From Euglena gracilis (taxonomy: Eukaryota), in contig CP154954.1 of NCBI GenBank assembly GCA_039621445.1, forward strand, positions 38,425,703-38,489,702: 64,000 nucleotides of DNA, in the 5' to 3' direction. Numbering within the stretch: the first letter of the stretch is position 1; every line of letters begins with the position of its first letter. Below the pieces are notes generated by a model, which was not told the DNA's origin, searched no databases, and saw nothing but the letters and a program-made list of their open reading frames with translations. Of the stretch, positions 3,393 through 54,298 are shown piece after piece. The translations under genes were made by a program, and so were the position numbers.

Positions 3393-3427
3393 TTTTTTTG
3401 CTAGAATTAAGAGGACCAGAAAGCGAG

Positions 3428-3478
3428 AACGGTGGTGGGGCGAACCGAATCCACCGACCAGTGGCACAGCCTACTGGA
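3428..3478. repeat. 51-bp double-hairpin motif, copy 1
   Basis: aacggtggtggggcgaaccgaatccaccgaccagtggcacagcctactgga is identical to 13882-13932. Stems are cggtgg/ccaccg and ccagtggc/gcctactgg. Confidence 0.9.
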
Positions 3479-3552
3479 GTTGAAGGTCCGCAGGCGGTTA
3501 TGATAATTAATTTAATTTTTTATTTTAATTGTAATTTAATATTTTTTTTTTA

Positions 3553-4419
<867 letters not shown>

Positions 4420-5082
4420 TGTCGTCTTTTTGATCTTTGTCGGTCATAACTAACGCGGGTGATTGGTGGTGCCTGAAATTACATGGTGCCAGGATGGGCC
4501 AGCATGGTGGGCCAAATCCTGTTTTGTCTTCTTGCGTGAAGATGAAGTGTTTTCAGACCAGGCTTTTGTGACTCATCGTTTCTGGGATACGATGAGAATC
4601 CTGTGCAATGCAAATGCAAGCTGTTTGTTGTGACAGAGCTCTTTGTGTCCCAAGCCTTGTTTTCCCGATGTTGTTGGTCATGGCTGGAAGAGGTCCTGGG
4701 TGGCCAGTGGACCGCAAAGTGCAAAGTACATAGAGCAAGGGTGATGGGCCGGCGATGGGGGGACTGGAGGAGCTGAGGAAGTATTCTCAGACCGGTTTTT
4801 TTGTGCGTAATATGTTGGATTTCTGATCTTTGTCGGTTCTGGCTGCTGTCCCAAATTGTGGTATGTTGCTTACATACTATACTGCTGTTCATCATTGTGA
4901 TGGGACGGTCTCAGCAGTAGCCTTTGATTTTCAGCAGCCTGCGGGAAACATTCTTTGTGTCCTCCTGCAGGTTGTGCTTTAGTCCAGATTATAAGGTTGA
5001 TGCGCCAGAACAGGACTTTGCATATCTTCAGATCCCAGGCATTGAGCCCACGACAGTTGTCGACACACTTCTCGGGCCAACA

Positions 5083-6369
5083 TGTGAGTGGTCCAGGTGC
5101 ATTTTTATGGTCACCATGTAATCACAGGCTGAAGCCTAATTCAAACAGGCAGATCGTGATTCACAGAAAAAATGATGGCGCTGTCTGTAGGTAGCTGTCA
5201 ACATACACTGTTCACTCTATTGTCTGGGATTACTTTCCTGAGAGTGTATTTGTTTGATTTTGTCTGCGGCGCAAGTTTATTTCAAGTTTGGTCATTGCTG
5301 CTGGAAGTGGGATTTTGGGAAAGAGATTTCAGTGAAAGGGATGTCAAGTAAAGGAAGGGGCTCCAGAAGTCAGGTCCGTGGTAAGGGGACCTCGGACATT
5401 CATGAACAGTGTATCAGGACAGTGTCCCAGTCCAGTTCGAACAGGGGACGCCATCGAGATGTACAGCCAGATTTGGTGAGATGTCGTTCAGTTGCCTGCC
5501 AGACAGATTCTCTGAGACTGGAATCCGTGGCTTGCCAGACATTTTGCAAAAGGCGGACAAGGGCCAGACGGCTACAGCGGAGATGGCTCGACCACCAAAA
5601 AAGATTTGAAGGTTTGAAGATTGATGGACAAAATTGGGGACCAGATTGGACATTGCAAAGTGATTGTGATTGGTAATTACAATTTGCTGCAACTTTGATT
5701 GTGGTCGGCTGCTGGGTGTTTGTCTTTGACTGTGGCCTGACGCCGCGGTACTGTGTGTACACCTGTGGATCGGCTGCGAAAGAATTTATCCGATGTGGCC
5801 TGATGTCGCAGAAGTGTGCTGCAATTTGGCTGCTGATCATTCATTCGCTGTAACATAGTCACTCAGATCGTGTCACCCCTGTGTGCTGTGTAGTGTGTCG
5901 GTGGCAGGTGTGAAGGCAATCACCCAGGACAGTACCATTGCAATTTCAAATGGACCACTTTTTTGCCTGGCTCCCCCAAAAATTTCGATGCACCTGGCCC
6001 AAATTGGAGTCAGGTCAGATTGCCGAGGGCAATCTCTTGAGCAGGGGGGTGGGAGTGGTCCAGGTGCATTTTTATGGTCACCATGAAATCACAGGCTGAA
6101 GCCTAATTCAAACAGGCAGATCCTAATTCACAGAAAAAATGATGGTGCTGTCTGTAGGTGGCTGTCAACATACACTGTTCACTCTGTTGTCTGGGATTAC
6201 TTTCCTGAGAGTGTATTTGTTTGATTTTGTCTGCGGCGCAAGTTTATTTCAAGTTTGGTCATTGCTGCTGGAAGTGGGATTTTGGGAAAGAGATTTCAGT
6301 GAAAGGGATGTCAAGTAAAGGAAGGGGCTCCAGAAGTCAGGTCCGTTGTAAGGGGACCTCGGACATTCA
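5083..6369 (+). mobile_element. Mini LTR retroelement 2 (non-autonomous, TRIM-like, putatively self-priming)
   Basis: 320-bp LTRs at 5083-5402 and 6050-6369 (TGTGAGTGG/TGGGAGTGG...TTCA). The 4-bp TSD AACA is at 5079-5082 and 6370-6373; the empty site gggccaacacaatgc is visible in the sister repeats. A purine tract gagcagggggg is at 6039-6049. The PBS tgaacagtgtat (5403-5414) is complementary to 5203-5214. Confidence 0.92.
5254..5676 (+). CDS. Small basic ORF of LTR element 2
   Basis: Open frame from the 5' LTR into the internal region. SVACQT occurs twice, followed by KRRTRARR, WLDHQKRFE and GQNWG, shared with the element 1 ORF. The start codon is uncertain. Confidence 0.5.
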   Translation: MILSAAQVYFKFGHCCWKWDFGKEISVKGMSSKGRGSRSQVRGKGTSDIHEQCIRTVSQSSSNRGRHRDVQPDLVRCRSVACQTDSLRLESVACQTFCKRRTRARRLQRRWLDHQKRFEGLKIDGQNWGPDWTLQSDCDW

Positions 6370-8007
6370 AACACAATGCTTAGTCCTACTCTGCTTCGCA
6401 GGATCTTCTTTCCCAGGGCTCCTTCTGCCCCAGGATGGCTCGGATGCAGGTCCCCAAAAAGATTCTGCCTTCATCTCCAATGCCACCACGTGGAGTTACG
6501 GGTTCAATATATATGCGTAATGTACAAAGCCGTGTCACAGGGTAAGAGGGCCGTTGTCGATCTTTTTTGTGTCTCATGTGCCATATTTCCGATCTTTGTG
6601 GTCATAACTAACGCGGGTGATTGGTGGTGCCTCAAATTTCATGGTGCCAGGATGGGCCAGCATGGTGCTCCAAATCCTGTTTTGTCTTCTTGCGTGAAGA
6701 TGAAGTGTTTTCAGACCAGGCTTTTGTGACTCATCGTTTCTGGGATACGATGAGAATCGTGTGCAATGCAAATGCAAGCTGTTTGTTGTGACAGATCTCT
6801 TTGTGTCCCAAGCCTTGTTTTCCGGATGTTGTTGGTCATGGCTGGAAGAGTCCTGGGTGGCCAGTGGACCGCAAAGTGCAAAGTACATAGAGCAAGGGTG
6901 ATGGGCCGGCGATGGGGGGACTGGAGGAGCTGAGGAAGTATTCTCAGACCGGTTTTTTGTGTGTCATATGCTGGATTTCCGATCTTTGTCGGTTCTGGCT
7001 GCTGTCCCAAATTGTGGTATGTTGCTTACATACTATACTGCTGTTCATCATTGTGATGGGACGGTCTCAGCAGTAGCCTTTGATTTTCAGCAGCCTGCGG
7101 GAAACATTCTTTGTGTCCTCCTGCAGGTTGTGCTTTAGTCCAGATTATAAGGTTGATGCGCCAGAACAGGACTTTGCATATCTTCAGATCCCAGGCATTG
7201 AGCCCACAACAGTTGTCGACCCACTTCTCGGGCCAACACAATGCTTAGTCCTTGCCAGCACTCTGCTTCGCAGGATCTTCTTTCCCAGGGCTCCTTCTGC
7301 CCCAGGATGGCTCGGATGCAGGTCCCCAAAAAGATTCTGTCTTCATCTCCAAGGCCACCACGTGGAGTTACGGGTTCAATATATGTGCGTAATGTACAAA
7401 GCCGTGTCACAGGGTAAGGGGGCCGTTGTCGATCTTTTTTGTGTCTCATGTGCCATATTTCCGATCTTTGTGGTCATAACTAACGCGGGTGATTGGTGGT
7501 GCCTCAGATTACATGGTGCTAGGATGGGCTAGCATGGTGGGCCAGATCCTGTTTTGTCTTGTTGCGTGAAGATGAAGTGTTTTCAGACCAGGCTTTTGTG
7601 ACTCATCGTTTCTGGGATACGATGAGAATCGTGTGCAATGCAAATGCAAGCTGTTTGTTGTGACAGAGCTCTTTGTGTCCCAAGCCTTGTTTTCCCGATG
7701 TTGTTGGTCATGGCTGGAAGAGGTCCTGGGTGGCCAGTGGACCGCAAAGTGCAAAGTACATAGAGCAAGGGTGATGGGCCGGCGATGGGGGGACTGGAGG
7801 AGCTGAGGAAGCATTCTCAGACCGGTTTTTTGTGCGTCATATGCTGGATTTCCGATCTTTGTCGGTGCTGGCTGCTGTCCCAAATTGTGGTATGTTGCTT
7901 ACATACTATACTGCTGTTCATCATTGTGATGGGACGGTCTCAGCATTAGCCTTTGATTTTCAGCAGCCTGCGGGAAACATTCTTTGTGTCCTCCTGCAGG
8001 TTGTGCT

Positions 8008-11000
8008 TTAGTCCAGATTATAAGGTTGATGCGCCAGAACAGGACTTTGCATATCTTCAGATCCCAGGCATTGAGCCCACGACAGTTGTCGACCCACTTC
8101 TCGGGCCAACACAATGCTTTGTCCTTGCCAGCACTCTGCTTCGCAGGATCTTCTGTCCCAGGGCTCCTTCTGACCCAGGATGGCTCGGATGCAGGTCCCC
8201 AAAAAGATTCTGCCTTCATCACCAATGCCACCAAAATAATCCAGGACCAGGGGCACAAGTGACCATCCCAGCCTGCTGCATACATCTTTGTACTTTGTCA
8301 CTTTTTCTTTCTCCTGTCTTTCATGCCAGCGTTCCCAACTTTGATCAGTCACTGGGTGGGACGGCGCCAGTGGATGCCGCACTGAGACATCTATTGCAGC
8401 CGGGCCGTTTGCATCGAACCTAGTGATGAAAACATCCCCAGGTCGTCTTCCATCTCCAGTGCCCTCTTCACGCCGAGCAGTATAGCCTGCCGCCTGTGCC
8501 AGCTGCAGGATGAAGTTTTGAATTCCTGCATGTCGCCGTGCCAAATTGTTTTTTTGTGCAACAAACCAGGTGATTCCCTTGATCATCCATCACTGTCTCA
8601 CATCGTGGACACTTTGCCTCCAAACCTTCGTGTGGAGCTACAACAGTCATCCCAGAGTCCATTGTAGAACTGCTCGGAATTCACCTGGGGGCATCAATGT
8701 CTTTTTTGCTGCACAAGGGTTTGCTGCCACCCACGCCAATGCATGAGGTTTCTGTTGGCTCAAAATACGCACCTTGTCAGCCCCGGTGGAATGCGTTACC
8801 AAGTCAGCTCCTCGTTTCTCAGAGAGCTTGTCGTTCCAGAATTTCTGGGAACTTTCCACTTTCCCCAGGTGAGGAATCCGATTGGAGTCCTGTAGTATCA
8901 AAGTTGTCAAATGACTCTCCCCCGTGATTTGTTCGACTGTGCGACCTGTCAGAACGAAGTCTGATGGTAATAGCTCAAGTTCTTTCGGGAACGAGACACT
9001 GTGTTCTGCTCTTTTGCAGAAATCCAAAATAGCAGCCCATCTGGCCACTGGCCTGGTCTTTATTGCATCGTGCAGTCCCAGGCCTCCCAGTCGAATGGGG
9101 ATGGTGGATTGCTCCCATCGAGCTTTTCAGTGAGCTGTCTTCGTGCAATATTGCTCAAACTGTCACGGACCAGGGCAGAGAAGAGCCGTACCATATCTTC
9201 AGAAGAGTTCAAGCGTTGTTCCTCGTAGAAGATCATTTACTTTGCAGCTGGCAATGCACTGGCGCAACAGGTGGAAACGAATGTGGCCGGAAGGAATGAA
9301 CTGCAGCAAGTAGCACAATTTTTCACAAGCTTTCAATCTGTCCTGCCAAATGGATCGCGCAAACGTGTCATCTCCCGGGTACGTCACAGGTATCCCCAGG
9401 GCTTTGATTCCAGATCCCTCCACAAAGGATGTTGCCGGTATTCGTTGCAACACACTGCTTCCCTGTGGCAATCTGCGAAAGGAATCATTGACGGCTGGGC
9501 CCCACAGCCGACATTTGTCCATGTTCAGACTGACCCCAATCGCAGGACCGTCTGCCAAAAGCATGCGCACCACACGATCCAGCTGTTCCATGGATCCAAT
9601 TAGATGGCAGTCGTCCAGGTACCAGCACTGCCATGGCACCATTTCTGCAATTTTGTTGACCAAAGGTTGCACCGCAATGCAGAAAAGAGCCGGGCCACAA
9701 GGGTCCCCTTGTTGAACTCCCGTTTTGGACCTCAGGCTTGTGTTTCCACAATACAAAGGGGAATGTGAACCATGGCATGATTCAGTCCAAGCTGTCATGT
9801 GTGGTACCTGCTGTCGCACTTGATGTAACATGGGTTCCCGTTTCAATTGATTGAAGGCGTTTGCAAAATCCAGCTGCAGAACAGCCCATTCTGTTTTCCC
9901 TGCCTTTTGCAGTCCTTGAACAATTTGTTGCAGTGCAATACTGGTGAGAGCACAAGCGTCAGAATGGCCTACACCGACTTGCCCAGGCAGCCCGTCAATC
10001 AGAGTGTTTCGTACAGTGGCTTCTTTTAACAGAACTTTGGCAAGCAACCGTCTTAAAACTTCTCCTGCCGCAATTGGCCTGGTTCCTTCGTGTTGCAAAT
10101 CGTTGTCCGTATGCAGCATCACATTACCGGCAGCATCTGTTTGTGGTTTCTTCTTTCTCAACGGCGTCAGTCGTGCTCCTGCCAAGATGGACCCCATTTC
10201 CAAAGGCAGTCCTTGTTGGATTGCCGAGAAGACAAAGGCGGAGATTTCTTCCAGTAAATCATCACCACAGCCCGCAGCCTGTGCGGAGATCAATGTTTTG
10301 AGATGGTCAGCCCGCTCGGTCCTCCTGCTGTTTCGTTTTTGAAGGACAGGATGGCCCGTCTCACGGCCTTTTTCATGTGGGCGTCTCCTTCTTGTCCCTC
10401 AGGGACTGGCAGGCGCACTCTTCCGTCGGGGGGCCCTTTCCCGGGCGGATCTTCTGATGGGTGAAGCAGACGTAAACGCTCACGAATTTTTGCATCATTT
10501 GCATCTTGGACTCCGTCTGACAACATTGCCTGACGCGCCTTTGCCGTTGCCCCTCTTTCCACCAGTTTCTGCATTCTGTTGAGAAAGGCTTCTTGTTGGA
10601 TTTCCTCCTCTTTACTTTTTGCTGATCGGGTTTTGACGCTGGATCCGAAATTCGCTTCCGACGGCCTGGACGACTCCCAGCATTCATGGACGTCTTTTTC
10701 CAGGTACGCCTTGGCTCTGGTACACAGCAGCCGCCCAATTCTGGCCCAGTGGGATCGTCCACCCTGACCAGTGCTTGCCAGGACTGCCTTTGGAAAACAC
10801 CACAAAGAGTGAAAGGCCTCCCAAGAGCCTTCTTGTCGTAATCGTCTGAACAAGAGGGTCAGGGTTCGTGCCACTTCCCCCAGCGCTCCTCTGGGGATCA
10901 ATGTCAACGTGGTCCTCGGTCATGTGCAATGTCATCCCATGCAGGGCGCAAACCTTTGGGACACGGTCCTTGTAAGGTGTGACACCCCCCCAAGTCCACT

Positions 11001-11959
11001 TCCATGCTGCCTTCCATAGGCCCCGGATTCTGCTCCACATCACCATGGGTCAGAACACCTTCTTCCCGCCCAGTTTTCCCATGGCCACGTGCTTTTCTTT
11101 TGTGAGCTTCAGATTCCTTCCTGGGGCCCGGGTTCAGGGGGACATCACCGCTGAAAGCCACACCTTCCCTGCCTGTGGCTAGGTGTTCTTCTGGCACCTG
11201 CAGCAATGTGTTTCCCGGGCCGCAAAGAATGTCTTGTAATTCTGCACAATGCTGTACGTGGGACAAGCACCACCCAGAATTTATTCTTTGCCTTGACCAC
11301 CCACACAGGGTGCACTGTACCCAGAAGGCTTCTCTTTCCTGAAAGAGAGGTGACGTCCCGTCTGGTCCTTTTGCAGGCTCCTCATCCGCCCGTATTTTGA
11401 ACATGTCTTGTACTTGTTGTTCCACCAAGACATGCAGGAGATCACATTCACCACACGGGCCCGCCGTTGGTCCAGGCAGGGGGTTGATGTCACCAGAAAA
11501 AAGCAGCCCCCAAGAGCCCTTGGCCGGGATGTCACGATTTCGTCCCATCTGTTGCCATTGGTCCACGACTTTGGTCAATTTACGTGCCGCCCGCTCGTGG
11601 ACCAGCGTGCCCCCCTGCTGCCGTCGCTCCTGCCGCTGATGCAGGAATTTTTTCTTCCAGCTGCTGAAAGAGGTTTCCTGCAGTGGAGCATTTTCCGGGG
11701 AATTGGGCGGACCAGACCTCGGCTCCCGGCATTTTTCGTCAAACATGACGCCCGTTGGGTTTAACCACTGGCCTTCCACTTTCCAAATCTCTGTGTCAAA
11801 GACAGAGAAAATTTTGTATGGGCCTCCTGGTGCTGGCCGTCTTTTTTCTTGCACCGCCGGTTTTTTCTCCCTTGTGGGGGTACCTTTTTCCATCACTGGG
11901 GTTTGGGATTCCCTTTGTCCTTGCTCAGGCCCGAATTCCAGGGCAAGGGGGGTAATCAA
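8008..11959 (-). pseudogene. CRE polyprotein: 2A region, reverse transcriptase, CCHC knuckle and restriction-like endonuclease (several frameshifts)
   Basis: RT motifs ARLTPLRK, RPIAAGEVLRRL, QVGVG, LDFANAFN, GVQQGDPCGP, YLDD, LNMDKC and ALGIP. Then CPRC..DDQGNHLVCC, and RLE motifs RRH..E..RPGD..IDVSV..K..KY..PLVLDYFGG. Confidence 0.93.
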
Positions 11960-12139
11960 CTCATGGCCGAGTTTTTCTCCAACTGCAGTTGGGGGGGGGA
12001 TATCTTCCCCTCTCCTGGACTTTTGCTGCAGAAAATCTTGGGGGGGTCTTCAGCACGCACTGAGCCACACAATGGGAATGTTTCTTCTCCCTGTGTGTGG
12101 TCCGCTTCTTCATTTTTTGCTACTGTTCTTTCCTTTCTT

Positions 12140-13413
12140 TCAGCAAGTCCAAATCACTCCTTCATGGTCTGAAGGAAAGATAGGAGGCTGTTGTTGAGCT
12201 GTCTGATGGGAGGCTCCAGTCCTGTCTCCTCCCTCTCCCGAATGGCTTTGGCTCCTCCTCCTTCTTGGTAAGGAGGGGGGGGGTGCTGACCCCAGGCCCT
12301 CCAGAGGCTGGCTGGGCAGAGGACACTGCTGCTGAGGTGTTGACAGTTCCTGGGGGGATGGCATTGTGCCCCACCGAATGGCCCATCAACAGCTGGTACT
12401 TCCACCAGGGTAGGTCTGCAGACATTGCCCCAGAGGGGTCCACATAGTAAACAGGCTGGGGAGTCATATACATCTGGTTCTGGCCACACATTGTCTGGCC
12501 CTGGCCAAGCAAAACTGCAGCTTGTCCTGAAAGGCCTGCTGTGGCTGCAGCTGCTGGTGTATACATCACAGACTGGGGATGGGGTACTTGATGACCTGTG
12601 GCAGATGCTGCAGCAGAGGAGTCCAAACTGGAAGAAGGCTGAGGCAGTTGATAAAATGTTGTCCATGGAATAACCCCAGATGGCAGATGTACAGTGCCTG
12701 ACCTTCTCTGTGCAGGGTACTCTCTCTGCTGCCCATACTCCTGCTGCTGCAGGGCTCTTCTCTGTGCTGGGTAGTCTCTCTCCAGCTGCTCAAACTCGTG
12801 CTGTTGCTGCAGGGGTCTTCTCTGTGCTGGGTAGTCTCCCAACTGCTACTCATACTCCTGCTGCTGCTGCAGGGGTCTTCTCTGTGCAGAAGAATCTCTG
12901 ACCTGTCTCTCTTGGTCAGGCCACCTCCAGTCTGGAGGGAACTCAGCTGCACTCCTCCTGTCTGGAGGGTTTCCACCACGTTAAACATTGAATCTCTTTC
13001 TGTCAGGGCTTCTGCTGCGACTTCTGGTCTGTCTTCCCCAGTACTCAGCTCTTCTTTTCCTGTCAGCTTCCTTCTGTTCCCAACGCAGCTGGCGAGGTCG
13101 TTCTGGGCATATAAAATATATTTGCATATAAAATCCTTTCGGAGCTCCCGGATGTGCACTTTCCGATGGAGAGGACTTGGAGAATCTCCAACTCCACCGG
13201 GGAATTTTTTCATGCTGACAATGAGAAAAAATGATTATTCATGCTCATAAAAGCAACCATTTTGTTTACAAAAAAATTCGAAAAACGCCAAAAAATTCAC
13301 ATCACATACGAAGAACCCCACCTGCGTTTCAGATAGTTCTCATACTCATCTGCTTCAAGGAAACCTTCTCCTTCATCCTCCTCTCTGCTGTCTCGGCTCC
13401 AACGCCTTCTCAT
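12140..13413 (-). pseudogene. CRE N-terminal (ORF1-like) region with an in-frame intron at 13215-13321 and Q-rich repeats
   Basis: Exon 13413-13322 (MRRRWSRDSREEDEGEGFLEADEYENYLKR) splices in frame to ORF 12566..13213. About four YPAQRR-LQQQ repeats lie at ~12705-12895. Frameshifted. Confidence 0.6.
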
Positions 13414-13491
13414 GAAATGCCACAGTTTGTCGAACTCGGAGCTTCAAACTATACCCCTGGTGGGGCTTTCACTTGTCCGACATGTGATATG

Positions 13492-13518
13492 CGAAAAAAA
13501 AATAGACACTCAGAAAGT
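13492..13518 (-). other. Euglenid spliced-leader exon sequence (relict, not an SL RNA gene)
   Basis: The minus strand reads ACTTTCTGAGTGTCTATTTTTTTTTCG, matching the Euglena SL as I recall it with one extra T. It is followed by CATATCACATG, not a GT donor. Confidence 0.92.
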
Positions 13519-13881
13519 GCCACCAATTTAAATTTTTTTTTTGGGAATCCACCAGCATCCACAGGCGTCGGTGGGAGCGGGGAGAGTTGAGGGTGAAGTA
13601 GAAGGGCGGTGAGGGGCACAATACGGAGGGGGGATAGCGAGTGAGAGAGGAAAGTGTACAGCGGCAGGAAAGGTTCAATGGAACGGCCATGGGGACTGTT
13701 GAGTGTTGAGGTTGTGGCAGCGACAAGTTCAGGTTTTGGGGAGTTGGCGCAGGGAAGGCTCTGTTTTCAGTGCGGTAAGGGTTTGGACGTCTTTGTAGAC
13801 TTGGTCCATTCGTTGCAAGGTGTGATTTGCTTGTTTTTTGGTTTAATTAGTCTTGTGGTTGGTTATGCGTACACGGTAACA

Positions 13882-13932
13882 AACGGTGGTGGGGCGAACC
13901 GAATCCACCGACCAGTGGCACAGCCTACTGGA
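13882..13932. repeat. 51-bp double-hairpin motif, copy 2
   Basis: Identical to 3428-3478 and in the same orientation; the flanks are unrelated. Confidence 0.9.
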
Positions 13933-14244
13933 TTTGTTGTGTTCAGGGGAGTAAGGCTATGTACAGTGGATAGAGTCTGTGCGAGGAGAAGGAGGTGTGG
14001 GGGCAGGTAGGAAGTGCGAGCTTAGCAGCGAGAAACGAACATGCTGAAAAGCTGGGTGGCGGGGTGTTGGGAGTGAGACCGATGCCCCGGTGTTTCGATG
14101 GTGAGGTGGTGGGCATGCTCCGTCTATGCGTACGGTTATGCGTACGGTTGGTGTTAAAATTTAATCTAGAATTAAGAATCAAAACAAAAATATCGCGAGT
14201 TTCTTTCCGCACAGAAGCCTGCCAACCAAAAATTCTTCCCAGCC

Positions 14245-16278
14245 ATGTCAGAGGATGACTTTGCTGAGCTGAATTTAGTAGATCAAGCAAATACTGATCC
14301 TGGGATCCCTCGTCATATCCCAATTACTAAAGGCATCTTGAGGCTTGGACGGGTGTATGTTCCTTGCCTGTGCCAGTTGACTGTCTTGCTGAAACCCTTA
14401 ATACATGGGATTTTTTTCCACCATGGCCCTCCATCGATGGTCATTTATTTTGATTTTTGGCCGCATGGCCATTGTTTTTTGGGGGGGGCAGGTGGCCATA
14501 TACGTTATATAATATTCAGCAGGAGGGGGTCAATGGGGGGTGCTCATCTGTTACAGTTGGCATCTTCCTTTCCCTTTGTCCTCCTGCCTTTTTTTGCACT
14601 TGGGCCCTTCAAAATAACCCTGGAAAATGGGCCCAGGTGCTGGTGGCTTTCTGCCCATTTGTGTGAACACCCTTTGTGGGGGCCAAGGTGCGACAGGGCC
14701 ATTTTCACCAAACCCCATCCCTTCAAAATAACCCCAAATCACATGGAAATAAAACCAAACGGCACCAACCTGCTGCCTTCCATTCCATTCCATTCCATTC
14801 CCGTCCTTCCCTTCCAAATTACTACCCCCCCCCCTCTTATTTGACAGTATTTGTCTGTTAGTCGATTCACGGCAAAACAGGTCGATCCACACCTATTTTT
14901 GGCCTACTTTGGGTCACTGATGGACAGGGAAAGCACAAAACAGGATCAGAAGCTACGTCTGGTGTCGGCACAGGTCTGGAGAGTTTGTGGAGCCACACGC
15001 ATAGCCACCCACAGGTGCGGTTGCGGAACGCCCTATCCCTAACCCCATTCTTGACCCTATCCCTAACCCTAACCATGTCCCTACAGTCCCTAGCCGTAAA
15101 TTTCCCCCCCCCCCAGGGAGGGTTTTTTGGGCTCTTGACCAGGGGGGGGGGATTTTCGGCCGTTTCGGGCACTTTGTCCCGTCCCTTCTATTCTTTGAAG
15201 CCATGAAGCCGACCGGGATTCGGAATTCATTTGCCGTATGTTGTGGGGTTGTTATGGTATATTCCCGAACGCCTCTGTTCAGGGCGGTGGGTCTTATTGA
15301 TAGATACATGCCGGGGATGGTTCAATGGACAAAAAACCCCAAAGGATGCCAACTCCTCGACCCAGGGGCCATGCAAGTGGTGAAGCTGTGCTGCCCTTGC
15401 ATGTACAAAAAAAAAGTCCCAACCCACCTGCCTTAGCTGTTCCTCTGGGGCTGAAGGGGGGGGGGAAAGTTTTCGCCCGTTTCGGAGCCTTTTGCAAAAC
15501 CAGGAAAATTCCCAAATTTCAGGGGGGGGGAAATTTTCGGGGGGGGGACAATTTACGGCTAGGGACTGTAACCCTAACCATAAACCATAACCCTAATCCC
15601 TAACCCCAACCCTAACCCTACCCCTAACCCTAACCCTATTCCTAACCGTATCCTTAATCCTGGCCCTAACCCTAACCATATCCAAAACCCTATCCCTAAC
15701 TGTATCCCTGACCCTATCACCCCAAACCCAAACCCTATCCCTAACCTAACCCTAACCATTTACCTAACCCGAACCCCAAACAAAACCCAAACCCTAACCC
15801 AATCCCTAACCCTATCCCCAAGCCCTGTAGCCGGTTTCCTAACCATAATTGGTGTGAATCGACTAACAGACTTGATGCCGTGGATCGACTAACAGACAAG
15901 TAGGGGGTGTTCCCCCCGCGTCCCCCCGCGTCCCCCCGCGTCCCGGATTTTGGCCGGGCACGTTTTTTTGGTTGACCAAAGGAAAATTACACACAAATTT
16001 AGGTGACGCCAAAGAAAACGTGTGGGGGTGGTTGGGCCACGTCCCCCCGTGTCCCCCCCGCGCCCCCCCCCCCCGTGTCCCCCCCCCGCGTCCCGAACCA
16101 CCCCCATACCTATTTTGACCCCCCCCATTAATTGAGCATTTGGGTCTGGGAAGAATTTTTTTAGGCGCCAAAGGCGCTGAAAATTTTTTTCGTCCTCTAT
16201 CAAAGCCAAATTTCGACCCCCCCCTTAATTGACCCCCCCCCTGAACTGAGCATTTGGGGTCCTTTGGGCCACACACAT

Positions 16279-16327
<49 letters not shown>

Positions 16328-19300
16328 TCAGGGGGGAAATGCGTTTCGCATTTTTTTTTGCATTTTTGCGCATTTTTTCAAATTTTTTCGCATTTTTTTT
16401 TCGCATTTTTTTCCTTTTTTTCCGCACGTTTTTTTGCTTTTTGGCACAGTTTTTTGTGATTTTCCAAAATTTTCGCATTTTTTTGACCATTTTTGACCAT
16501 TTTTTGCAAAAATTTGAAAATTTTGACTTTTTTGAAACGTACATTTTCCTCATTATTACATAATTTCTTCAAATTTGGTGCCATTTTTGCACGTTTTTGG
16601 GTAATTTTTGCATTTTCGTGATTTTTGCGCATTTTTTCTCAGATTTTGCACATTTTTGCGCATTTTTCTCCAAAAATGCGCATTTTTTGTGCATTCTTTT
16701 GCGCATTTTTGCGCATTTTTTTCCGAGGCCGGGCGAGCGCATTTGCTCCCCTGCACACATTCCGAAGCACACATGCACACACCCACACCACATCATTTTT
16801 AATGAAAGATTTTTGCACCATATTTTCCAATGATCTCCCCAAATTCTTCTTTTCAATTTGCGAAACTGGTGGAAGATGGACAGCGCCAGAAAAAGATACA
16901 AAAACACCCCCTTTTCCATACTTTTGAGCATATTGCCCTTTTTGATCATTTTTCGATGTTTTGGTGTTTTATGAAAGATTTTCTATACAAAAATCGACCG
17001 ACACTAACAGATTCAGCAGGGGCGCCGGGCGCGAGCGAGCGAAGCGAGCCGCCCGGCGCCCCTGCTGAATCTGTTAGTGTCGGTCGATTTTTCTAAAACC
17101 TATTTTGTCTGGGCCCGACGCCTGTCTTGATATTCATTCGACCGAACCGCCTGGACGGAAATATGGTCAAAAAAGTGGTTTTTGGCCCATTAACGGGCGC
17201 CTGAATGGAAATCGACCGACACTAACGGGCGCCTGAATGGAAATCGACCGACACTAACGGGCGCCTGAATGGAAATCGACCAACACTAACGGACGCCTGA
17301 ATGGAAATCGACTGACATAAACGGTTTCCGATGTCTTGGAAATCGACCGACCTTTTGTGTCCTTTTTTTGAATGCCTTTTGTTCCGTTTCGGGACATTTT
17401 AGGTGTCAGCCTGAAATCCGTTAATGTCGACCCAACCTTTTGTTCCCTTTTTCGGAATGCAGCTTTTCTTCCATTTTGAAACAAACAATCTCTACATCAA
17501 GAACTGTGTCTTAAACGCAGACTCTGCATTTTTTCGGAATGCATTTTTTCTTCCATTTTGCCAAGAACAATCTCTACTACAAAAAAGGGGTGGCGGACGC
17601 CGGTTCTGTCCAAAACCCGGCGTTCCAAACGCCGGTTCCGTCCGAAGGACGGAACCGGCGTTTGGAACGCCGGGTTTTGGACAGAACCGGCGTCCGCCAC
17701 CCCTTGTTTAAAGCGGCGTTTTAGAGACGCCGGGTTCAGGACAGAACCGGCGTCCCCACCCTTCGGTCAAAGGACACTCCCAGGACCAATCTCCGACCAC
17801 TTATCTGCAATGTCACGCCACCTTGCATTTCACCAAATTCCGGCGATCGCGAGGGTATTTCTGGCTGTGTCGATCGCCTGGGTACAAACTCACCCCTCGA
17901 TCGAAAGCTCTTTTCATCAGACGACTGGCGATCACCACCAAATTCAGCGACGCCGCCTGGAGCTCTTACTTTCTGTCACTGGGAAATCCTAATTTCACAA
18001 CTCTGGTGCCCCCCAGAACCCCTCAGGTGGTCGCTTCGAAGAGAAGAAACGTTTCTGTAAGGTTTATTCAGCATCTTAAACCAAAAATCACTGAAAATTA
18101 CCACAAATTTCGACTAAGATTCTGGCCGATCCGACGATCGCGAGCGTATCTCTGGCTGCGTGCAACGTTAGGGTACCAAGTTACCCCTCGATCGAAAGCT
18201 CTTTTCAACAGACGACCAGCGGTGCTCATCAGACCTTTCCACGCCGCACGGTACTCTTTATCAAAATCTGGGCCAATTTCACGAAATTTGGACATCCACC
18301 CCACTGGTCCCCAAATGGCAAAAATCATTGTCCTACATGGTTAAAACAGTCATACCAGGAGCTTTGGGCCACTTTTGGGCACTTTTGGTGACATTTTTAG
18401 GAATGAAAATCGGACGCCGGGTTTTGGACAAAACCGGCGTTCCTAACGCCGGGTTTTACACAAAAATCGTCCATGTCACCCGGACACACCGTGTGTCCGG
18501 GTTATGGGCGCCGAAGGCGCCCATAACCCGGGTACACGGTGTGTCCGGGTTACAATGGACGATTTTTGTCTATATCCGTTGACTAAGAGGCCCAAGACAC
18601 ACACTGTGTCTCGTGGAACTTAGCCACGCAATGTCTACCCCGTATTTTTTTGCGATTTTTTGTCAAATTTTCAGTTCACGATGACACACACTGTGTCTCG
18701 TGGACTGCCAGTCCACGAGACACAGTGTGTGTCCTCGTGAACTGAAAAAAATCAAGAATTCCCACTGGTCCGACCAACAAGGGACAAGTTTTACCACATT
18801 CCGCTACCTGTCCTTGCAGTTTTTTCTTTCGGAAAATGAAGAAGACCGCAAACAGTGTGGACCGCATGCTCCCCCGACCCCCGAAACCAGATGAATTTGT
18901 TGCTACACTGGAAAAGTATTTGGTCGATTTGCAGAAGGGCCCTGCTGTTGACCCAATACACGGTACGTTGTTGGCCAACGTGTTGGAAGAGAAGCCAAAA
19001 GGGACCGCAATTGCTGAGCGTGTAGCTGTTACACGCCTGTTGGAGTTCCAGCAGGTGTGTAAACATCTGAACGCTCAGTATGAGGACCTGGATGGCTTTT
19101 TTTCCGCATGGGCTGGTTGGGTCATTGACCCCAGATATTTGTTTGATGAGGCTACCCTCATCAATCAAGCTGAGCAACAACGCCGGGGCACAGTGTGGCA
19201 CCACATTCAGTTTCGAGACATACCTGTACCATCTCAGCTGTTACAGCTCACGGTTGTCCGGTGACCATCTTTCCACTGCCCTGCTGCATTGCATTAGATG

Positions 19301-22300
19301 TAGAACACCTCGCATTTCTGGCAAACACCTTTTATTTTTCAGTCCACGAGACACAGTGTGTGTCCCAGTCCACGGGGACACACACTGTGTCTCGTGGACT
19401 CAGTCCACGAGACACAGTGTGTGTCTTGGGCCTCAGTCCACGGATATTAGGACAGAACCGGCGTCCGAAAACCCGTGGGGGGGGACGCCGGTTCTGTCCT
19501 GAACCCGGCGTCTCAAACGCCGGTTTTATCTCAAGAACTGTGCCTAAAACGCAGACTCTGCATTTTTTTAGAAACACAGATTTTGACCAAAGCCATGTTG
19601 CCAGGAACACAGCCTTGCAATAGAATAGAATTGCAATACAGGCGTCGAGCCCAGAAAATAGGTTTAACGTGGCCAAATTACTCCTCACCCGAAAGCTTTT
19701 CTTTCAGATGACCAGTGATAACAACTGGTTCAGGGCAAATTTGCCGAATGCTTTTTCTGAAGTCCCAGAAAATGATAATCTTCAGCTCCGTCCTTCCGTC
19801 TGTTCCATCAAAGTTCAGCCAGCTGTGATCACCTGACCACAAAATTTGGTTTTTTTCTGGTCCAAAACGCCTCCACAACCCCATAGGACCAAAAATGTCT
19901 TCAAAAAAGGGAGATCCAAAATGTCCAAAAAGTCACCAAAAATTCCCAATCTGACCAGCAACAGATTTCAATGGAATGGAAATCGACCGACATAAACGGG
20001 CGCCTGAATGGAAATCGACTGACATAAACGGGCGCCTGAATGGAAATCGACTGACATAAACGGGCGCCTGAATGGAAATCGACTGACACAAACAATTTCA
20101 GGCTGAAATCCGTTAATGTCAGTAGAATTTCAAGACAGGCGTCGGGCCCAGAAAATAGGTTTTAAGATTTTTCAAAAATGAGCATTTTTGGATTAATTTT
20201 CTACACACAAATTGTGGCTGAGCCCAGATTTCAGCCTGAAAACGTGTTCAGCCAGGGGGCCCCCGAAGGGGGCCCCCTGACGTTTTCAGGCTGAAATCTG
20301 GGCTCAGCCACAATTTGTTTGAAAACGTGCCTAACCACAGATGCCTTAATTGAAAACGTGTCATTGCCACAGATGCCCTCATTGAAAACGTGTCACCCCC
20401 CCCCTTTTTTTTTTTTTTTTCCCACTATGGCGAAACGCACGGCTAACTTTGTGAATGGTCTTTTGCCACCTCCCCCTAGGACGGAACTGTTCCTGGCTGC
20501 TCTCGCGGTATACCAGCAAGATGCCAAGAAGCCGAAGGTTGACCCCCTTCTGGCACCTTGCTGGCACAGGGCAACGTAAAGAAAAGGTCCGGCTCCGTGG
20601 GAGCAGAGGCTGCTGTTGCCAACTGTTTGGAGTTCGCCAAACTGTGTCAACATCGGAAGCATCTTATCCTGAGCTGCATGCTTTCTTTGTTGCCTGGATG
20701 GGATAGGAGCTGGAACCCAGCCTGTTGTTCGATGAGGCGAGCGTCATTTAACAATGTGTGGCTCAACGTGAGCAGCAGTCGGGAACTTTGTTCGTTTCAG
20801 GGAATTGTTCGGCAACCTCTTTTCTTCTTTGCCATTCCCAAAAATCCAAATTGGAGCTGAACAAAGTTGTGTGTGACGCCTGTGGTTTGGCATATCATTT
20901 TCATTGCCAAGATTTGCGGTGGCCACCAAAGTTTGGCTCTTTTTTTGTGTAAAGCGTGTCGTGTTCCGTGAGGTCCGCCACTCCGTGTCGTTGTGCTCCA
21001 AGGCAACCTAGCTTTCTGTTGTGTTTAGAGTGCCCTCGATCCGCCTCACTCGTTGAGGACCACCCGGCCTCGCAACCGCCCGCCGATTTTTCATGACAGC
21101 GTTTTTTGCTTTTTACTCAGGGTTGCCACAGATGCCTCATTGAAAACGTGCCTGACCACAGATGCCTTAATTGAAAACGTGTCATTGCCACAGATGCCCT
21201 CATTGAAAACGTGCCTAACCACAGATGCCTTAATTGAAAATGTGTCATTGCCACAGATGCCCTCATTGAAAACGTGTTCATGACCACGAATTTCAGGGCA
21301 GGCATTTGGCGGGCTGAACATGTTTTTAAGGCACGTTTTTAAAGAAATCAGGGATTTTTGAACAATTTTGCCCGATTTTCCAGCCGTTTGCCCGTCCACA
21401 AAACCAGCCCCCCCCCCAAATTTCGAGGTAGGGGGTGGGGGGGGGGGTCCCTCATCCATCCTCCCCGTCGGGCCAGGACTTTGGGAGATAAATAATACCC
21501 AGGGGTGTTCACCTCCTCCTCTGTCCCTCTACCCCCGGGGCACGAGGTATCAAAAAAAAAAAGTGGCAAGTTTTGGTTCATATCAGGTGGCCGCACCGTC
21601 CCCGGGCGGAATATTGGCCATGCTGGTTCTGGACGGGCCGACCTCTGGAGGTCGACAGAAATGGCCACTGACTGTGCTGCATTATCCCTCGGGCCGACCT
21701 AGTCAGCCCGACCTGTTGCTGCGGCCGCGCGAGGGGGGGGGGGCTCGGACCTGGCCAATCCACGCACCAATCCCCCATTGTATCTGCCGGCTGTAACTTC
21801 ACCTTCCAAAGCTGGTGTCTCCTCCGAGTCCCCCCCCCCACGTCCCAGACACACCCTATGGGTGGGGCGGGAGGGTCCAACCACACCCCACCATGCCGCA
21901 AAGGGGCAAAGCAACTCCCTGGAGATTTCACATCCAAGGACCTGATTGCCTCTTCATTCAACTGTTCCATTTCTTTCCTTTTCCCCCTCACAGAGAACAC
22001 CCAGATTATGCTGATGTTGCCATCAAGTCTGCCAAATTTGAGGCCATGGTGTCTCGAAAACATGCACCCAAGATGTCACAAAGCATCAATTTCTTCACCC
22101 CAATACCTCCTGGAACCCACAACCAGACAATGGCAAGGGAAAAGTCAAGGCTCAGCAAAAAAAATAATCTTCGCTCGGCCAGTGTCCTGGGACCACAAGG
22201 GGGGGGGGGGAATGACGGGGGGTTGCTTGGTTTTTTTTGCCATTTGAGAGAAAGTGAACTGGAGTGGGAGGAACATGGGGGGAGTGGGCAATAATTGAGG

Positions 22301-25300
22301 ACAAAGTGTCAAAATTCACTAGTAAGAAACACCATGTTTGCTTGGGGTTTTCACCAATGCTTTGATCCATTTGGTGTGGCAGAATCCAACGACGTTCCAA
22401 CCATCATCCATCCACCGCCATCACTGCCCTTTGCCATCTTGCAAGCAACAATCAAGAAAGTCACCAGAGGGTGGGCCATCATCGACAACAAGAGCACAAA
22501 TGGGGTCATGGTAAATCGCCAACCTATCCAGGCAGATGTGCCGATGCCCATCAAGTGTGTTCTGTCTTGTCAGGTTACCATGCTCCTCCTCATGAGACCC
22601 CCCCTGGCCAGCCAAAAGCAGGCCCTTTGACTGAAGCCAACCCCTCCCCCATTGATACCCTGGAATTCACCTGTTTGTGGAGCACCCACCCACCCACCCC
22701 TTGGGGTGCTCCCGGGGGGGGGAGGGGGGAGGCCCGGGGTTCATTCGGGAGCGTGATTTGGCCCTCCTTATTTTGCACACACAAGGGGATTTTGTTATTT
22801 TTGGCGGGGGTCCGGGGCATACAATTTCTTACCGACCCTGGGGGGGTCACTCCACTTTTTTAAAAACCAGTCAGTCACCCATTTTCAAAAAACCAGCCAG
22901 TCACTGCCCCCGGGGGGGGGGTCGGCCACTCAGAAAAACGGCCACTTTCCAGTTACTTTAGGCCATTTCAGGCCAAAAAAAAAATTTCCGGCGCCTTCGA
23001 CACCGGGGTCACTCAAGCCACTTTTGCCCGCTCCTGGCCGCCCCCCCCCCCGGGGGGGAGGGGGTCCGGGCCCAAAACCAGTCAGTCACTCTGAAGAAAC
23101 TAGTCACCCACCCCCCGGGGGGGGTCGGTCAGTGCTTTAGCAATTGCCTGGTCCGGGGGGGGGGGGGGGGGGGTGGCAGCCCCCCCCCCCCCCCCCGGAG
23201 GAGGCCGTAGGTCGACTAAGTTCGCATATTGGGGTTCATACGGGGGCGCGATTTGGCCCTCCTTATTTTTCACACACAAGGGGATTTTGTTATTTTGGGC
23301 GGGGGGGGGGGGTCCGGTGGGTGGCGCCCCCCCCCCCCCCCCCGGAGGCCGACTAAGTTCACATATCGGGGTTCATTTTTTGCAAATGGACCCCCGAACG
23401 GGGGGTTTCTGAAGGCATTTGGGTGGGTTTCGAGTCATTTTCCTCCATATTTGAATGAAAATTTTTGGAGGGGGGGGGCTTAAAATTTTTAGAGGGGGTA
23501 GACTGAAAATTGGTGGTCGGAGCGACTAGTCGCTCCGACCACCAATGGTCGCTAGGCCATCACCAACAGTCGCTAGCGACCACCAAAAAATCCATCACCA
23601 ATTTCCCGCAATGAGCCCATCACGGGCAAATACAGGGAGATGTTTAACCCCCCAAAATAACACCTTGATAATTGTGAACGGCCGGCAGCAAAAATTACTC
23701 GCCACTGGCGTCATGGTCCGAAGGCCAGGCCCCAGTCCTATTGAATGTCCAGGCCCTGGTCCCCCCTGGAGCCAAAAAAGCTTCAGTGGCAGAGAGCCAT
23801 GGGCAGACAGGGGGAAGCGCACCTGGGGGGGTTGCAGTCCTATGGCATACCCCTCTGGCGTCTTTGGCACCGCGGGGGTCAGTGGAATTTTGAAAGAAAA
23901 ATGGGGTTTGGTGGGCGGCCATTACACAAAAATCGTCCATGTCACCCGGACACACCGTGTGTCCGGGTTATGGGCGCCAAAGGCGCCCATAACCCGGGTA
24001 CACGGTGTGTCCGGGTTACAATGGACGATTTTTGTCTATATCCGTTGACTAAGAGGCCCAAGACACACACTGTGTCTCGTGGAACTTAGCCACGCAATGT
24101 CTACCCCGTATTTTTTTGCGATTTTTTGTCAAATTTTCAGTTCACGAGGACACACACTGCGCAGTGCCCTAATTCCCCCCCCAAATTAATGTGCAGTGCC
24201 CTGTTTGTGCGCACCCGCCAAAGGTCCGAAACTAGCTCCCTAAAAAGTGCGCACCCCCCCAAAGGAGAAACTGTCACATCTCAGGTCGGAAAGCACACAC
24301 AATTCTTCCATCCTCCAATCCCAAATTTGACACATTCCACCAGATGTGTCTCGTGGACTGGCAGTCCTCGAGACACAGTGTGTGTCCTCGTGAACTGAAA
24401 AAATCAAGAATTCCCACTGGTCCGACCAACAAGTGCCCCCCAATAACTTGGCCTTTCGGCAACTTTTGGCTTAGAGCATAAAGGTTTCTCGTGGACAAGT
24501 TTTACCACATTCCACTACCTGTCCTTGCAGTTTTTTCTTTCGGAAAATGAAGAAGACCGCAAACAGTGTGGACCGCATGCTCCCCCGACCCCCGAAACCA
24601 GATGAATATGTTGCTACACTGGAAAAGTATTTGGTCGATTTGCAGAAGGGCCCTGCTGTTGACCCAATACACGGTACGTTGTTGGCCAACGTGTTGGAAG
24701 AGAAGCCAAAAGGGACCGCAAAGGCTGAGCGTGTAGCTGTTACACGCCTGTTGGAGTTCCAGCAGGTGTGTAAACATCTGAACGCTCAGTATGAGGACCT
24801 GGATGGCTTTTTTCCCGCATGGGCTGGTTGGGTCATTGACCCCAGATATTTGTTTGATGAGGCTACCCTCATCAATCAAGCTGAGCAACAACGCCGGGCA
24901 CAGTGTGGCACCACATTCAACTTCGAGACATACCTGCCTTCTACCGTTTACAGCTCACGGTTGTCCGGTGACCATCTTTCCACTGCCCTGCTGCATTGCA
25001 TTAGATGTAGAACACCTCGCATTTCTGGCAAACACCTTTTATTTTTCAGTCCACGAGACACAGTGTGTGTCCCAGTCCACGGGGACACACACTGTGTCTC
25101 GTGGACTGCCAGTCCACGAGACACAGTGTGCGTCTTGGGCCTCAGTCCACGGATATTATCCCCAAAGGCTTTGACATCCTGCCGAAATACAACCAGATCT
25201 TACTTTGGTTTTGTGCCCATCATTTTCCCCTCCTACAGAGATGGCGATGTCATCACATTTGGAACCGACCAGTCAGACCTTGTGTACACTTTTGAGGTGT

Positions 25301-50221: not shown

Positions 50222-50258
<37 letters not shown>

Positions 50259-53200: not shown

Positions 53201-54256
53201 GCGGCAGCACTCGGCGACATTTCAGGTGGAAAATGTGAAGACAAAATGCATATGACAAGTTGGGAATGATGAGGAGCAAGGGTGCCTTTGAAGAACACAA
53301 TGACACAATTTTGCACACATCTCAGCTTTGAAATTACTTCATGTAAAGCACAAATGAGTCTGTGACTGACAGTGAAAAACTTGTGAACAAAGGAGCGGGG
53401 ACAAATGGTATGGGGCATCCCTGGTCATCGGGTGAACACCATTGTTGGCAAGTAGTACGTTGTCAGGAGGATGGGCACATTTCAAAATCATCAACAACGA
53501 GCATAGAGGGTCAGAGACAGGGTATTAAACGAGGGGAGGTGATCCCGGATCCCCCTCCCCCTGGGGTGGGGGTTGACTCCTCAATCCTTGGAGGAAAATA
53601 CGGTGCGAAATGCCATAAATTTCTGCGGGGGGTTTCAATGAACAAATGCCCAAAAACTGTGCTTTCAGGTGATTTTCAGGTGATTTCTGATGAATCGACA
53701 AAAACACAACAAAAAAACCTTTGACTCAAAAGCCCCAGGAAAGAAACCTTTTGGTTTCCAGGGGGTCCTTGGACCCCCTCTGGGGGGGTCTTGGGGGGGG
53801 GAGGTCCCCTCCCCCTTTGGAGGGGGGTCCCACAATCCCCAATACCCTGGTCAAAGATCAGTTGCCACACTCATCGGTCAAATTTATCGCAACGTGCCAC
53901 TCTCGTGCCAACATTTGCCATAAACCACCCCTCCGCCCCAAAATAAGACCCCGGTCAACTTTTTGAGTCCATTGCTGAAAATCGTATGTTTGGGGGTCTA
54001 CTTTTGGATCTTTGCTGAAGAATTTGACCCAAAAAAAGCATTCCCGCGGGAGGGTTCAAAATAGGTCAAAAAGGGGTATTTATTGGCAATGAACAAAAAT
54101 TTTATAAATGCTTATATTATCGCATGCAAAATGCAAAAAAAAAAAAAAAAAAACAAAACAAAAAAAAAAAAAAAAAAACACAGCACACAAAAACAAACAA
54201 AAAAAAAACAAGAAATGAAAAAAAAGGAAAAAAAAAAAAAAAAGGGGGGAAAAAAA

Positions 54257-54298
<42 letters not shown>

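Follow-up and report, generated by a model that had tools for sequence, protein, structure and literature searches.

A complete spliced leader encoded in DNA near the 5′ end of an R2-like retrotransposon in Euglena gracilis

Spliced leaders (SLs) are joined to RNA by trans-splicing; how, then, does a complete SL come to lie in genomic DNA, just ahead of a retrotransposon? The question is raised by a 64-kb window of the Euglena gracilis genome (here, the whole stretch of DNA that was analysed: 64,000 nt, positions 38,425,703 to 38,489,702 of contig CP154954.1, assembly GCA_039621445.1). At 13518->13492 the minus strand reads ACTTTCTGAGTGTCTA followed by T9 and CG, 27 nt in all (positions are those of the window, and coordinates written with an arrow are on the minus strand, read from high to low). 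The E. gracilis SL given in a passage of PMC6242988 is ACTTTCTGAGTGTCTATTTTTTTTCG, 26 nt with a run of T8, and the portion of PMC5654406 that describes an SL primer has it extending the SL by two 5′ bases. All published bases are present in the window (26/26), with one additional T in the homopolymer. A sequence-only reading of this DNA had reported a complete euglenid SL; that description holds for the 26 bases and for their position on the coding strand, but the run is T9 and not T8.

13492..13518, minus strand: hard-coded SL, 27 nt (the 26-nt E. gracilis SL plus one T), identified by sequence match to the published SL
13414..13491, minus strand: 78-nt leader from the SL to the ATG of the first long open reading frame (ORF); it starts CATATC and holds a 4-codon upstream ORF

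The 3′ limit of the SL is exactly the published exon end. The base that follows is C, the junction between SL and body reading CG and then CATATC, and no GT donor is present there, as the sequence-only reading had noted; the next ATG (13413->13411) lies 78 nt downstream, close to its figure of ~80 nt. A 22-nt SL core allowed up to 3 mismatches had one match in the window, both strands searched, and none in dinucleotide shuffles (0/100). Searches across the window with both SL halves (≤2 mismatches) revealed no relict or second SL, each half giving one unrelated 2-mismatch match, at 45614 and 1885, and local alignment of the SL to 1.4 kb downstream and 1 kb upstream returned trivial T-rich matches only. 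Folding of the SL and leader (115 nt from the SL onward) was unexceptional, with z = -1.26.

A true SL RNA gene, the competing identity raised by the sequence-only reading, was looked for and rejected: no GT donor follows, the SL is alone in 64 kb, and neither 5S rRNA nor any other Rfam family reached gathering score in the window. SL RNA genes are reportedly organised in tandem with 5S rRNA genes in Euglena. An SL RNA gene should also bear an Sm site in a structured intron part; between 13000 and 14000 there was no SL-RNA-like Rfam match at E ≤ 10, in a database that may hold no euglenid SL RNA model. The SL is not part of an SL RNA gene.

The sequence on either side places the SL close to an insertion boundary.

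13525..13542, minus strand: 5′ copy of a candidate target-site duplication (TSD), A10TTTAAATT, found by regular expression and local alignment
3533..3551, minus strand: 3′ copy of the candidate TSD, A10TATTAAATT, found in the same two ways
13519..13524, minus strand: filler GGTGGC, 6 nt, between the TSD copy and the SL

Before the SL the minus strand reads ...CCC A10 TTTAAATT GGTGGC; at the 3′ end, a microsatellite of ~840 bp is followed by ...GAGAGAGCT A10 TATTAAATT ACAATT.... The result is an 18/19-nt direct repeat whose two copies adjoin the ends of a 9,973-bp unit (13524->3552), and which looks like a TSD bracketing a 9,973-bp insertion into an AT-rich stretch, a candidate drawn from the sequence. 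An exact k-mer search with the last 45 nt of the 5′ flank gave a match to A10T only, the gapped repeat being found by eye and by the regular expression A{6,}T.{0,2}TTAAATT, which has two matches on both strands of the window (13542->13525 and 3551->3533). Among 37 listed runs of A≥9 (12 minus, 25 plus) these two alone carry the TSD tail, and when the 30-nt 5′ flank is aligned locally to the window, it matches the 3′ TSD site better than any other place outside itself (score 32; runner-up 30). The SL lies 6 nt from the candidate TSD, suggesting that it arrived with the inserted unit, as part of an RNA template. The earlier placement of the SL at the 5′ end of the element is close, but the 6 nt GGTGGC lie between the SL and the presumed edge of the insertion. 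Insertion targeted to a microsatellite was considered and rejected, the 5′ side having none.

The SL stands on the coding strand of an element bearing a reverse transcriptase (RT), and it runs on one strand, without interruption of orientation, into the RT and a restriction-like endonuclease (RLE).

8008..12113, minus strand: ORF2 polyprotein, ATG at 12113, stop 8010->8008, decayed
11494->11468, minus strand: 2A-like motif GDINPLPGP, deviant
11149->11123, minus strand: 2A-like motif GDVPLNPGP, deviant
11044->11018, minus strand: 2A-like motif GDVEQNPGP, canonical D(V/I)ExNPGP

Pfam identified RVT_1 at 10086->9502 (E = 9.8e-16), and all sequence matches in the PDB (5/5) were R2 proteins. Database relatives (n = 28; 25 unnamed, 3 labelled 'hypothetical protein') align without a break from the RT as far as 8020, where the reading frame ends; residues 1-651 of relative P0005, for instance, align to 9939->8020 in one frame. 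These relatives carry CPxC...HxxxCC and RPGD...D...K motifs, and R49, P50, D52, D67 and K96 were invariant in alignment A1; the RLE core lies at ~8535->8239 in the window. The CCHC cysteines are kept in the relatives and mutated in the window copy. When the C-terminal 193 residues were modelled (mean predicted local distance difference test score, pLDDT, 77.4) and compared with the PDB by Foldseek, the top 7 matches were R2 proteins; next came Prp8-containing spliceosome entries and archaeal Hjc resolvases, and two matches had E ≤ 0.001. No apurinic/apyrimidinic endonuclease (APE) domain (Exo_endo_phos) was found in 8 minus-strand ORFs (E ≤ 0.1) or in relatives P0014-P0016. On the modelled fold and the conserved motifs, the element is a predicted RLE-type, R2-like retrotransposon without long terminal repeats (non-LTR).

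The N-terminal part of ORF2 is less conventional. An ORF at 12049->10904 holds the three 2A-like motifs and a zinc-finger-like module (11455->11246), and this 2A-zinc finger-2A region aligns by tblastn to the long relatives P0015 and P0016, each of which has 3 canonical 2A motifs (D(V/I)ExNPGP). Their order is SLBP-like RNA-binding module, 2A, zinc finger, 2A, Dam-like module, 2A, RT, RLE; SLBP_RNA_bind is above the Pfam cut-off in P0016, and the Dam-like module, with an NPPF motif, is below cut-off. Judged by sequence, P0015 and P0016 would be RLE-type non-LTR elements carrying an adenine-methyltransferase-like module. In the window copy the Dam-like module is missing, and 26 residues stand in its place. 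The N-terminal 381 residues of ORF2 had no near-length homologues among 2,738 candidates, and the tblastn alignments of the long relatives are the one tie of this part to the family. With six in-frame stops in 10398->8011 and frame changes near 10310, 10919 and 12045, the window copy is, on the evidence of its reading frames, dead.

Between the SL and ORF2 lies a second reading frame.

12162..13413, minus strand: ORF1-like region, ATG at 13413, stop 12164->12162

Within these 1.25 kb there is a tandem repeat of 60 bp (12887->12703), and the frame is broken by one in-frame TAG and by at least one frameshift. A phmmer search against 1.84 billion representatives gave 0 matches, Pfam gave no significant family (DUF4592 sub-threshold only) and an Atlas search gave no usable lead. 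The label ORF1 in the sequence-only reading is therefore borne out as to the ATG, but not as to membership of a family, the frame having no detectable relatives. The spacer from the ORF1 stop (12162) to the ORF2 ATG (12113) is 48 nt; an ORF1 stop, a short spacer and an ORF2 ATG make up the usual two-ORF layout of long interspersed nuclear elements (LINEs). The longest A-run between the SL and the ORF2 stop is ≤7. A candidate GT-AG intron of 107 nt (13321->13215) has a GC content of 0.32, against 0.43-0.49 in its flanks, and a polypyrimidine tract before its AG, and its removal would join the first 92 coding nt, the exon of the ATG at 13413, in frame to an ORF at 13213.

At its other end, the element is partly repeated.

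6370..8233, minus strand: tandem repeats of the 3′ part of the element, period 873 bp (8233->7361, 7360->6489, partial 6488->6370)
4432..5082, minus strand: rest of the third 3′ unit, a 650-bp block
5083..6369, minus strand: nested 1,287-bp insertion resembling a long terminal repeat (LTR) element, of the terminal-repeat-in-miniature (TRIM) kind, which interrupts the third 3′ unit
3552..4431, minus strand: 3′ tail, a short A-rich stretch and then (GA)n, (AT)n and (TC)n on the minus strand, ending ...GAGAGAGCT

Each tandem unit comprises TGGTGGC at its start, the last ~75 codons of ORF2 and the 3′ untranslated region (UTR). Units 1 and 2 are 97.25% identical, and the three 650-bp blocks are equidistant (pairwise 97.5% identical, 13-15 substitutions), which fits a simultaneous origin. 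In the nested insertion, a 647-bp core is flanked by two 320-bp direct repeats (TG...CA, 97.5% identical), and TGT is duplicated where the insertion entered; the tail microsatellite (3581-4420, ~840 bp) reads (GA)172, (AT)82, (TC)171 on the plus strand. Self-BLAST revealed no further copies of the element in the window besides the tandem 3′ units.

The same heptamer stands at both places: TGGTGGC, which is the filler GGTGGC with the T before it, directly precedes the SL (13525-13519) and begins the tandem units (8233-8227, 7360-7354 and 6488-6482), and it is invariant in 4/4 junction contexts (alignment A3). It is not enriched in the window (14 observed on both strands versus 18.2 expected), and its positions alone are notable. 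R2 RT is capable of end-to-end template jumping. By analogy, our best guess is that the RT would have jumped between element RNAs with the aid of homology at TGGTGGC, yielding one full-length copy and, after it, truncated ones within a single TSD pair, the last jump leaving a filler of 6-7 nt. Alternatively, the RNA of the family might begin with (T)GGTGGC followed by an SL encoded in cis, which would give the opposite answer on the origin of the SL.

The reading that we favour, and to which we would give roughly an even chance, is that the template RNA of this copy was trans-spliced and then reverse-transcribed to its 5′ end. An SL that stops at the exon end with no donor behind it is the boundary that trans-splicing must give, whereas it would be a matter of chance if the leader had been captured at the DNA level, if the element had entered an SL gene or if the RT had switched template to SL RNA. 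According to a statement in PMC10679874, SL trans-splicing is estimated to affect more than 70% of the transcripts of E. gracilis, so that element RNA made by RNA polymerase II (Pol II) would be expected to be trans-spliced as well. Under the proposed mechanism, RNA of the RLE-type, R2-like element would be transcribed by Pol II, and trans-splicing would replace its 5′ outron with the host SL; target-primed reverse transcription at an A/T-rich site would then reach the capped 5′ end, turning the leader into DNA. Both the GGTGGC filler and the tandem 5′-truncated 3′ units could have come from template jumps by the R2-like RT. On this reading, the trans-splicing would have acted on the template RNA of this very copy rather than in an ancestor.

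Several observations weigh against this reading. If the RNA included GGTGGC, the SL cannot have been its 5′ terminus; the homopolymer of the SL is T9 and not T8; and a well-formed candidate intron is still present, which a fully processed mRNA should have lost. The ORF1-like region is an orphan and the long ORF2 relatives P0015 and P0016 begin with an SLBP-like module instead, so we infer, rather than observe, that the SL-proximal 1.3 kb belongs to the element family. Given the 6 in-frame stops and several frameshifts of the copy, it is possible that its template was defective to begin with. Scored alone, the TSD has a modest statistical margin (32 versus 30 for the next match, to an A-run). 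Finally, one copy, with its one upstream flank, was examined. The sequence-only reading had posed a choice between a trans-spliced RNA and an SL captured in cis; the TSD places the SL 6 nt from the edge, as both require, and one copy does not separate them.

Inheritance in cis is the strongest competitor, possible in our estimation although we lean away from it. Here an ancestor would have gained the SL, probably itself by trans-splicing and copying, and the 5′ UTR of the family would since have encoded it, with transcription starting at the SL itself or a little before it, for instance at (T)GGTGGC. The GGTGGC between TSD and SL, together with TGGTGGC at every tandem-unit junction, fits a short terminal redundancy of such an RNA, the retained candidate intron is as expected, and T9 in place of T8 agrees with a leader that evolves like any other DNA. 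However, repeated recycling should have left relict or partial second SLs downstream, and there are none; 6-7 nt is very short for holding a start site; and the SL is otherwise intact across its 26 published bases. Intactness is itself uninformative on selection, ~0.3 substitutions being expected in 27 nt at the 1.2% per-lineage divergence of the tandem units.

We consider it improbable that the insertion is a chimeric retrocopy, in which the RT switched template to an unrelated trans-spliced host mRNA, so that the SL and the ORF1-like 1.3 kb would be host sequence. That the ORF1-like region has no relatives among element or other proteins, that the long ORF2 relatives start with a different N-terminal module and that the tandem truncated units hint at a jump-prone RT in the same insertion would all suit it. 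R2-type RTs, though, land on the 3′ ends of acceptor RNAs when they jump, so that a poly(A) tract would remain; the stretch from the SL to ORF2 has neither poly(A) nor an A-run above 7, hence no visible poly(A) junction, and the order of ORF1 stop, 48-nt spacer and ORF2 ATG is that of an ordinary LINE.

Still less convincing, and in our view very unlikely, is a history like that of SLACS, in which the family inserts into SL RNA genes and is transcribed along with them from their promoter, so that its RNA starts at SL nucleotide 1, the window copy being an off-target insertion of such an RNA. The element is RLE-type and its host is a euglenozoan, as for SLACS, CZAR and CRE. SLACS, CZAR and CRE1 nevertheless split the leader internally, between nt 11 and 12, whereas this SL is complete and stops at the exon end; the flanks are an AT-rich duplicated site and not an SL/5S array; and no SL-RNA intron-like sequence or structure was seen by the Rfam search at E ≤ 10 or in the fold (z = -1.26), with no euglenid SL RNA gene as reference. 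An artefact (an assembly chimera from a cDNA-like or misjoined read) or a fortuitous match is barely credible, for although there is a 10-bp homopolymer shortly before the junction and a 9-bp run inside the SL, the shuffles exclude chance and a local misjoin would not produce an SL inside a matching TSD pair 10 kb apart.

A second hard-coded SL came from elsewhere. When prokaryote-labelled genome contigs were scanned with a 24-nt SL string, one locus (L001) was found, on the 988-nt contig JALQXU010000217.1, filed under a bacterial metagenome-assembled genome, which is probably a eukaryotic contaminant. It has the exact 26-nt SL, with T8, at 601-626, followed by ATCTTC... (ATCTTCTCAG and then GTAACC), with an ATG 68 nt later; there is no adjacent donor, yet a GT lies 10 nt after the SL. 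It gave no Rfam match and no unusual fold, and shares nothing with the window besides the SL. Upstream of its SL, no more than 90 nt away, are degenerate TAGGGG-type repeats, which are oriented relative to the SL as is a telomere-like array in the window; that interstitial array, (TAACCC)41 on the plus strand at 15569-15818, is 2 kb from the window SL.

A broader and speculative reading would concern a family without a promoter of its own. Host read-through and SL trans-splicing could give its RNA a capped, translatable 5′ end, and full-length reverse transcription could write the leader into each copy, where the encoded T-rich SL with a downstream AG might act as a trans-splice acceptor region or as a cis leader. 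SL trans-splicing would then be how euglenid retrotransposons in general, and retrocopies such as the one on L001, make up for a lost promoter, a reading that we consider unlikely.

The insertion site has some structure of its own.

13882..13936, minus strand: outer 55-bp direct repeat, copy 1
3428..3482, minus strand: outer 55-bp direct repeat, copy 2

The two outer copies are 98% identical over 55 bp, and an exact 50-mer has 2 matches versus 0 expected. As a TSD of the element itself this repeat was rejected, since it is the 18/19-nt repeat, and not the 55-mers, that adjoins the unit at either end; with ~407 bp of sequence, it frames the AT-rich site that the SL-bearing unit entered. The site is either a locally repetitive stretch or the interior of an older insertion of ~400 bp. 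A 12-mer, TCTTAATTCTAG, is shared near the outer repeats (14166-14177 and 3400-3411).

Elsewhere in the window, interrupted poly(A) tracts on the plus strand at 50223-50330 and 54135-54294, with runs of up to 35 and 37 A, might be tails left by further retroposition events, and the SL searches gave nothing upstream of either. A cluster of short palindromes and segmental repeats occupies 17000-25200, where 23922-24159 matches 18456-18693 (99%) and 24493-25158 matches 18782-19449 (97%), and 1940-2350 matches 656-1065 (99%). Pfam searches of 24 other long ORFs of the window gave no family above cut-off.

Known systems offer partial parallels. L1Tc of Trypanosoma cruzi is a 2A-containing, APE-type non-LTR retrotransposon, and the window element resembles it in its predicted 2A-like motifs of the D(V/I)ExNPGP type in the N-terminal part of a polyprotein; unlike L1Tc, it has three motifs separating several modules and is RLE-type. 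R2 is nearer, its structures (R2Bm, R2Tg and turtle R2) supplying the closest solved RT sequences and the closest endonuclease fold, and the relatives have the CCHC before the RLE as in R2. The concatemer-like 5′-truncated units are compatible with template jumping, a property of R2. In contrast with R2, the element does not lie in ribosomal DNA, an ORF1-like region precedes its ORF2, it has three 2A-like motifs and its tail is a long microsatellite; its relatives carry SLBP-like and Dam-like modules.

A literature search, outside which most subscription journals lay, did not find SL-tagged retrocopies or retrotransposons in euglenids. PMC5776459 does not mention trans-spliced retrotransposon transcripts, and the available part of a 2026 preprint on Dam-bearing retrotransposons, which describes Euglena elements with LINE-like RTs, has 0 occurrences of 'spliced leader'. 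RLE clades and their use of SL exons as insertion targets are treated in a section of PMC4640811. Like SLACS, CZAR and CRE1/2 of trypanosomatids and NeSL-1 of nematodes, the window element is an RLE-type non-LTR element physically linked to an SL in a trans-splicing host. Unlike the CRE group, it is preceded by a whole SL and sits inside a duplicated AT-rich target that is not an SL, and it does not interrupt an SL exon. The link to the SL appears to run through RNA processing and not through target choice, and the two kinds of link stand in contrast among euglenozoan RLE elements: target choice in SLACS, CZAR and CRE, and apparently RNA processing here.

The closest counterpart is found in dinoflagellates, in which DNA-encoded relict SLs (DinoSL) mark retroposed mRNAs, as outlined in passages of PMC5585692 (citing Slamovits and Keeling 2008) and PMC12014239. 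As in those excerpted accounts, the SL described here is DNA-encoded at a 5′ end, stops at the exon boundary without a donor and serves as a tag of retroposition. It differs from them in its euglenid host, in tagging an autonomous-type retrotransposon rather than a host gene, in being one complete SL with no stacked truncated relicts and in the retention of a candidate intron. This case is a variant of the relict-SL retrocopy phenomenon, new in its euglenid and retrotransposon setting, and a genome-encoded SL is a molecular tag of the passage of a DNA segment through processed RNA. If such leaders proved common in the family, euglenid retrotransposon RNAs would enter the host trans-splicing pathway and their RT would reach the capped 5′ end, and encoded leaders could provide a means of counting and dating retroposition events across the genome of Euglena, which is very large and rich in repeats, as relict DinoSLs are used in dinoflagellates.

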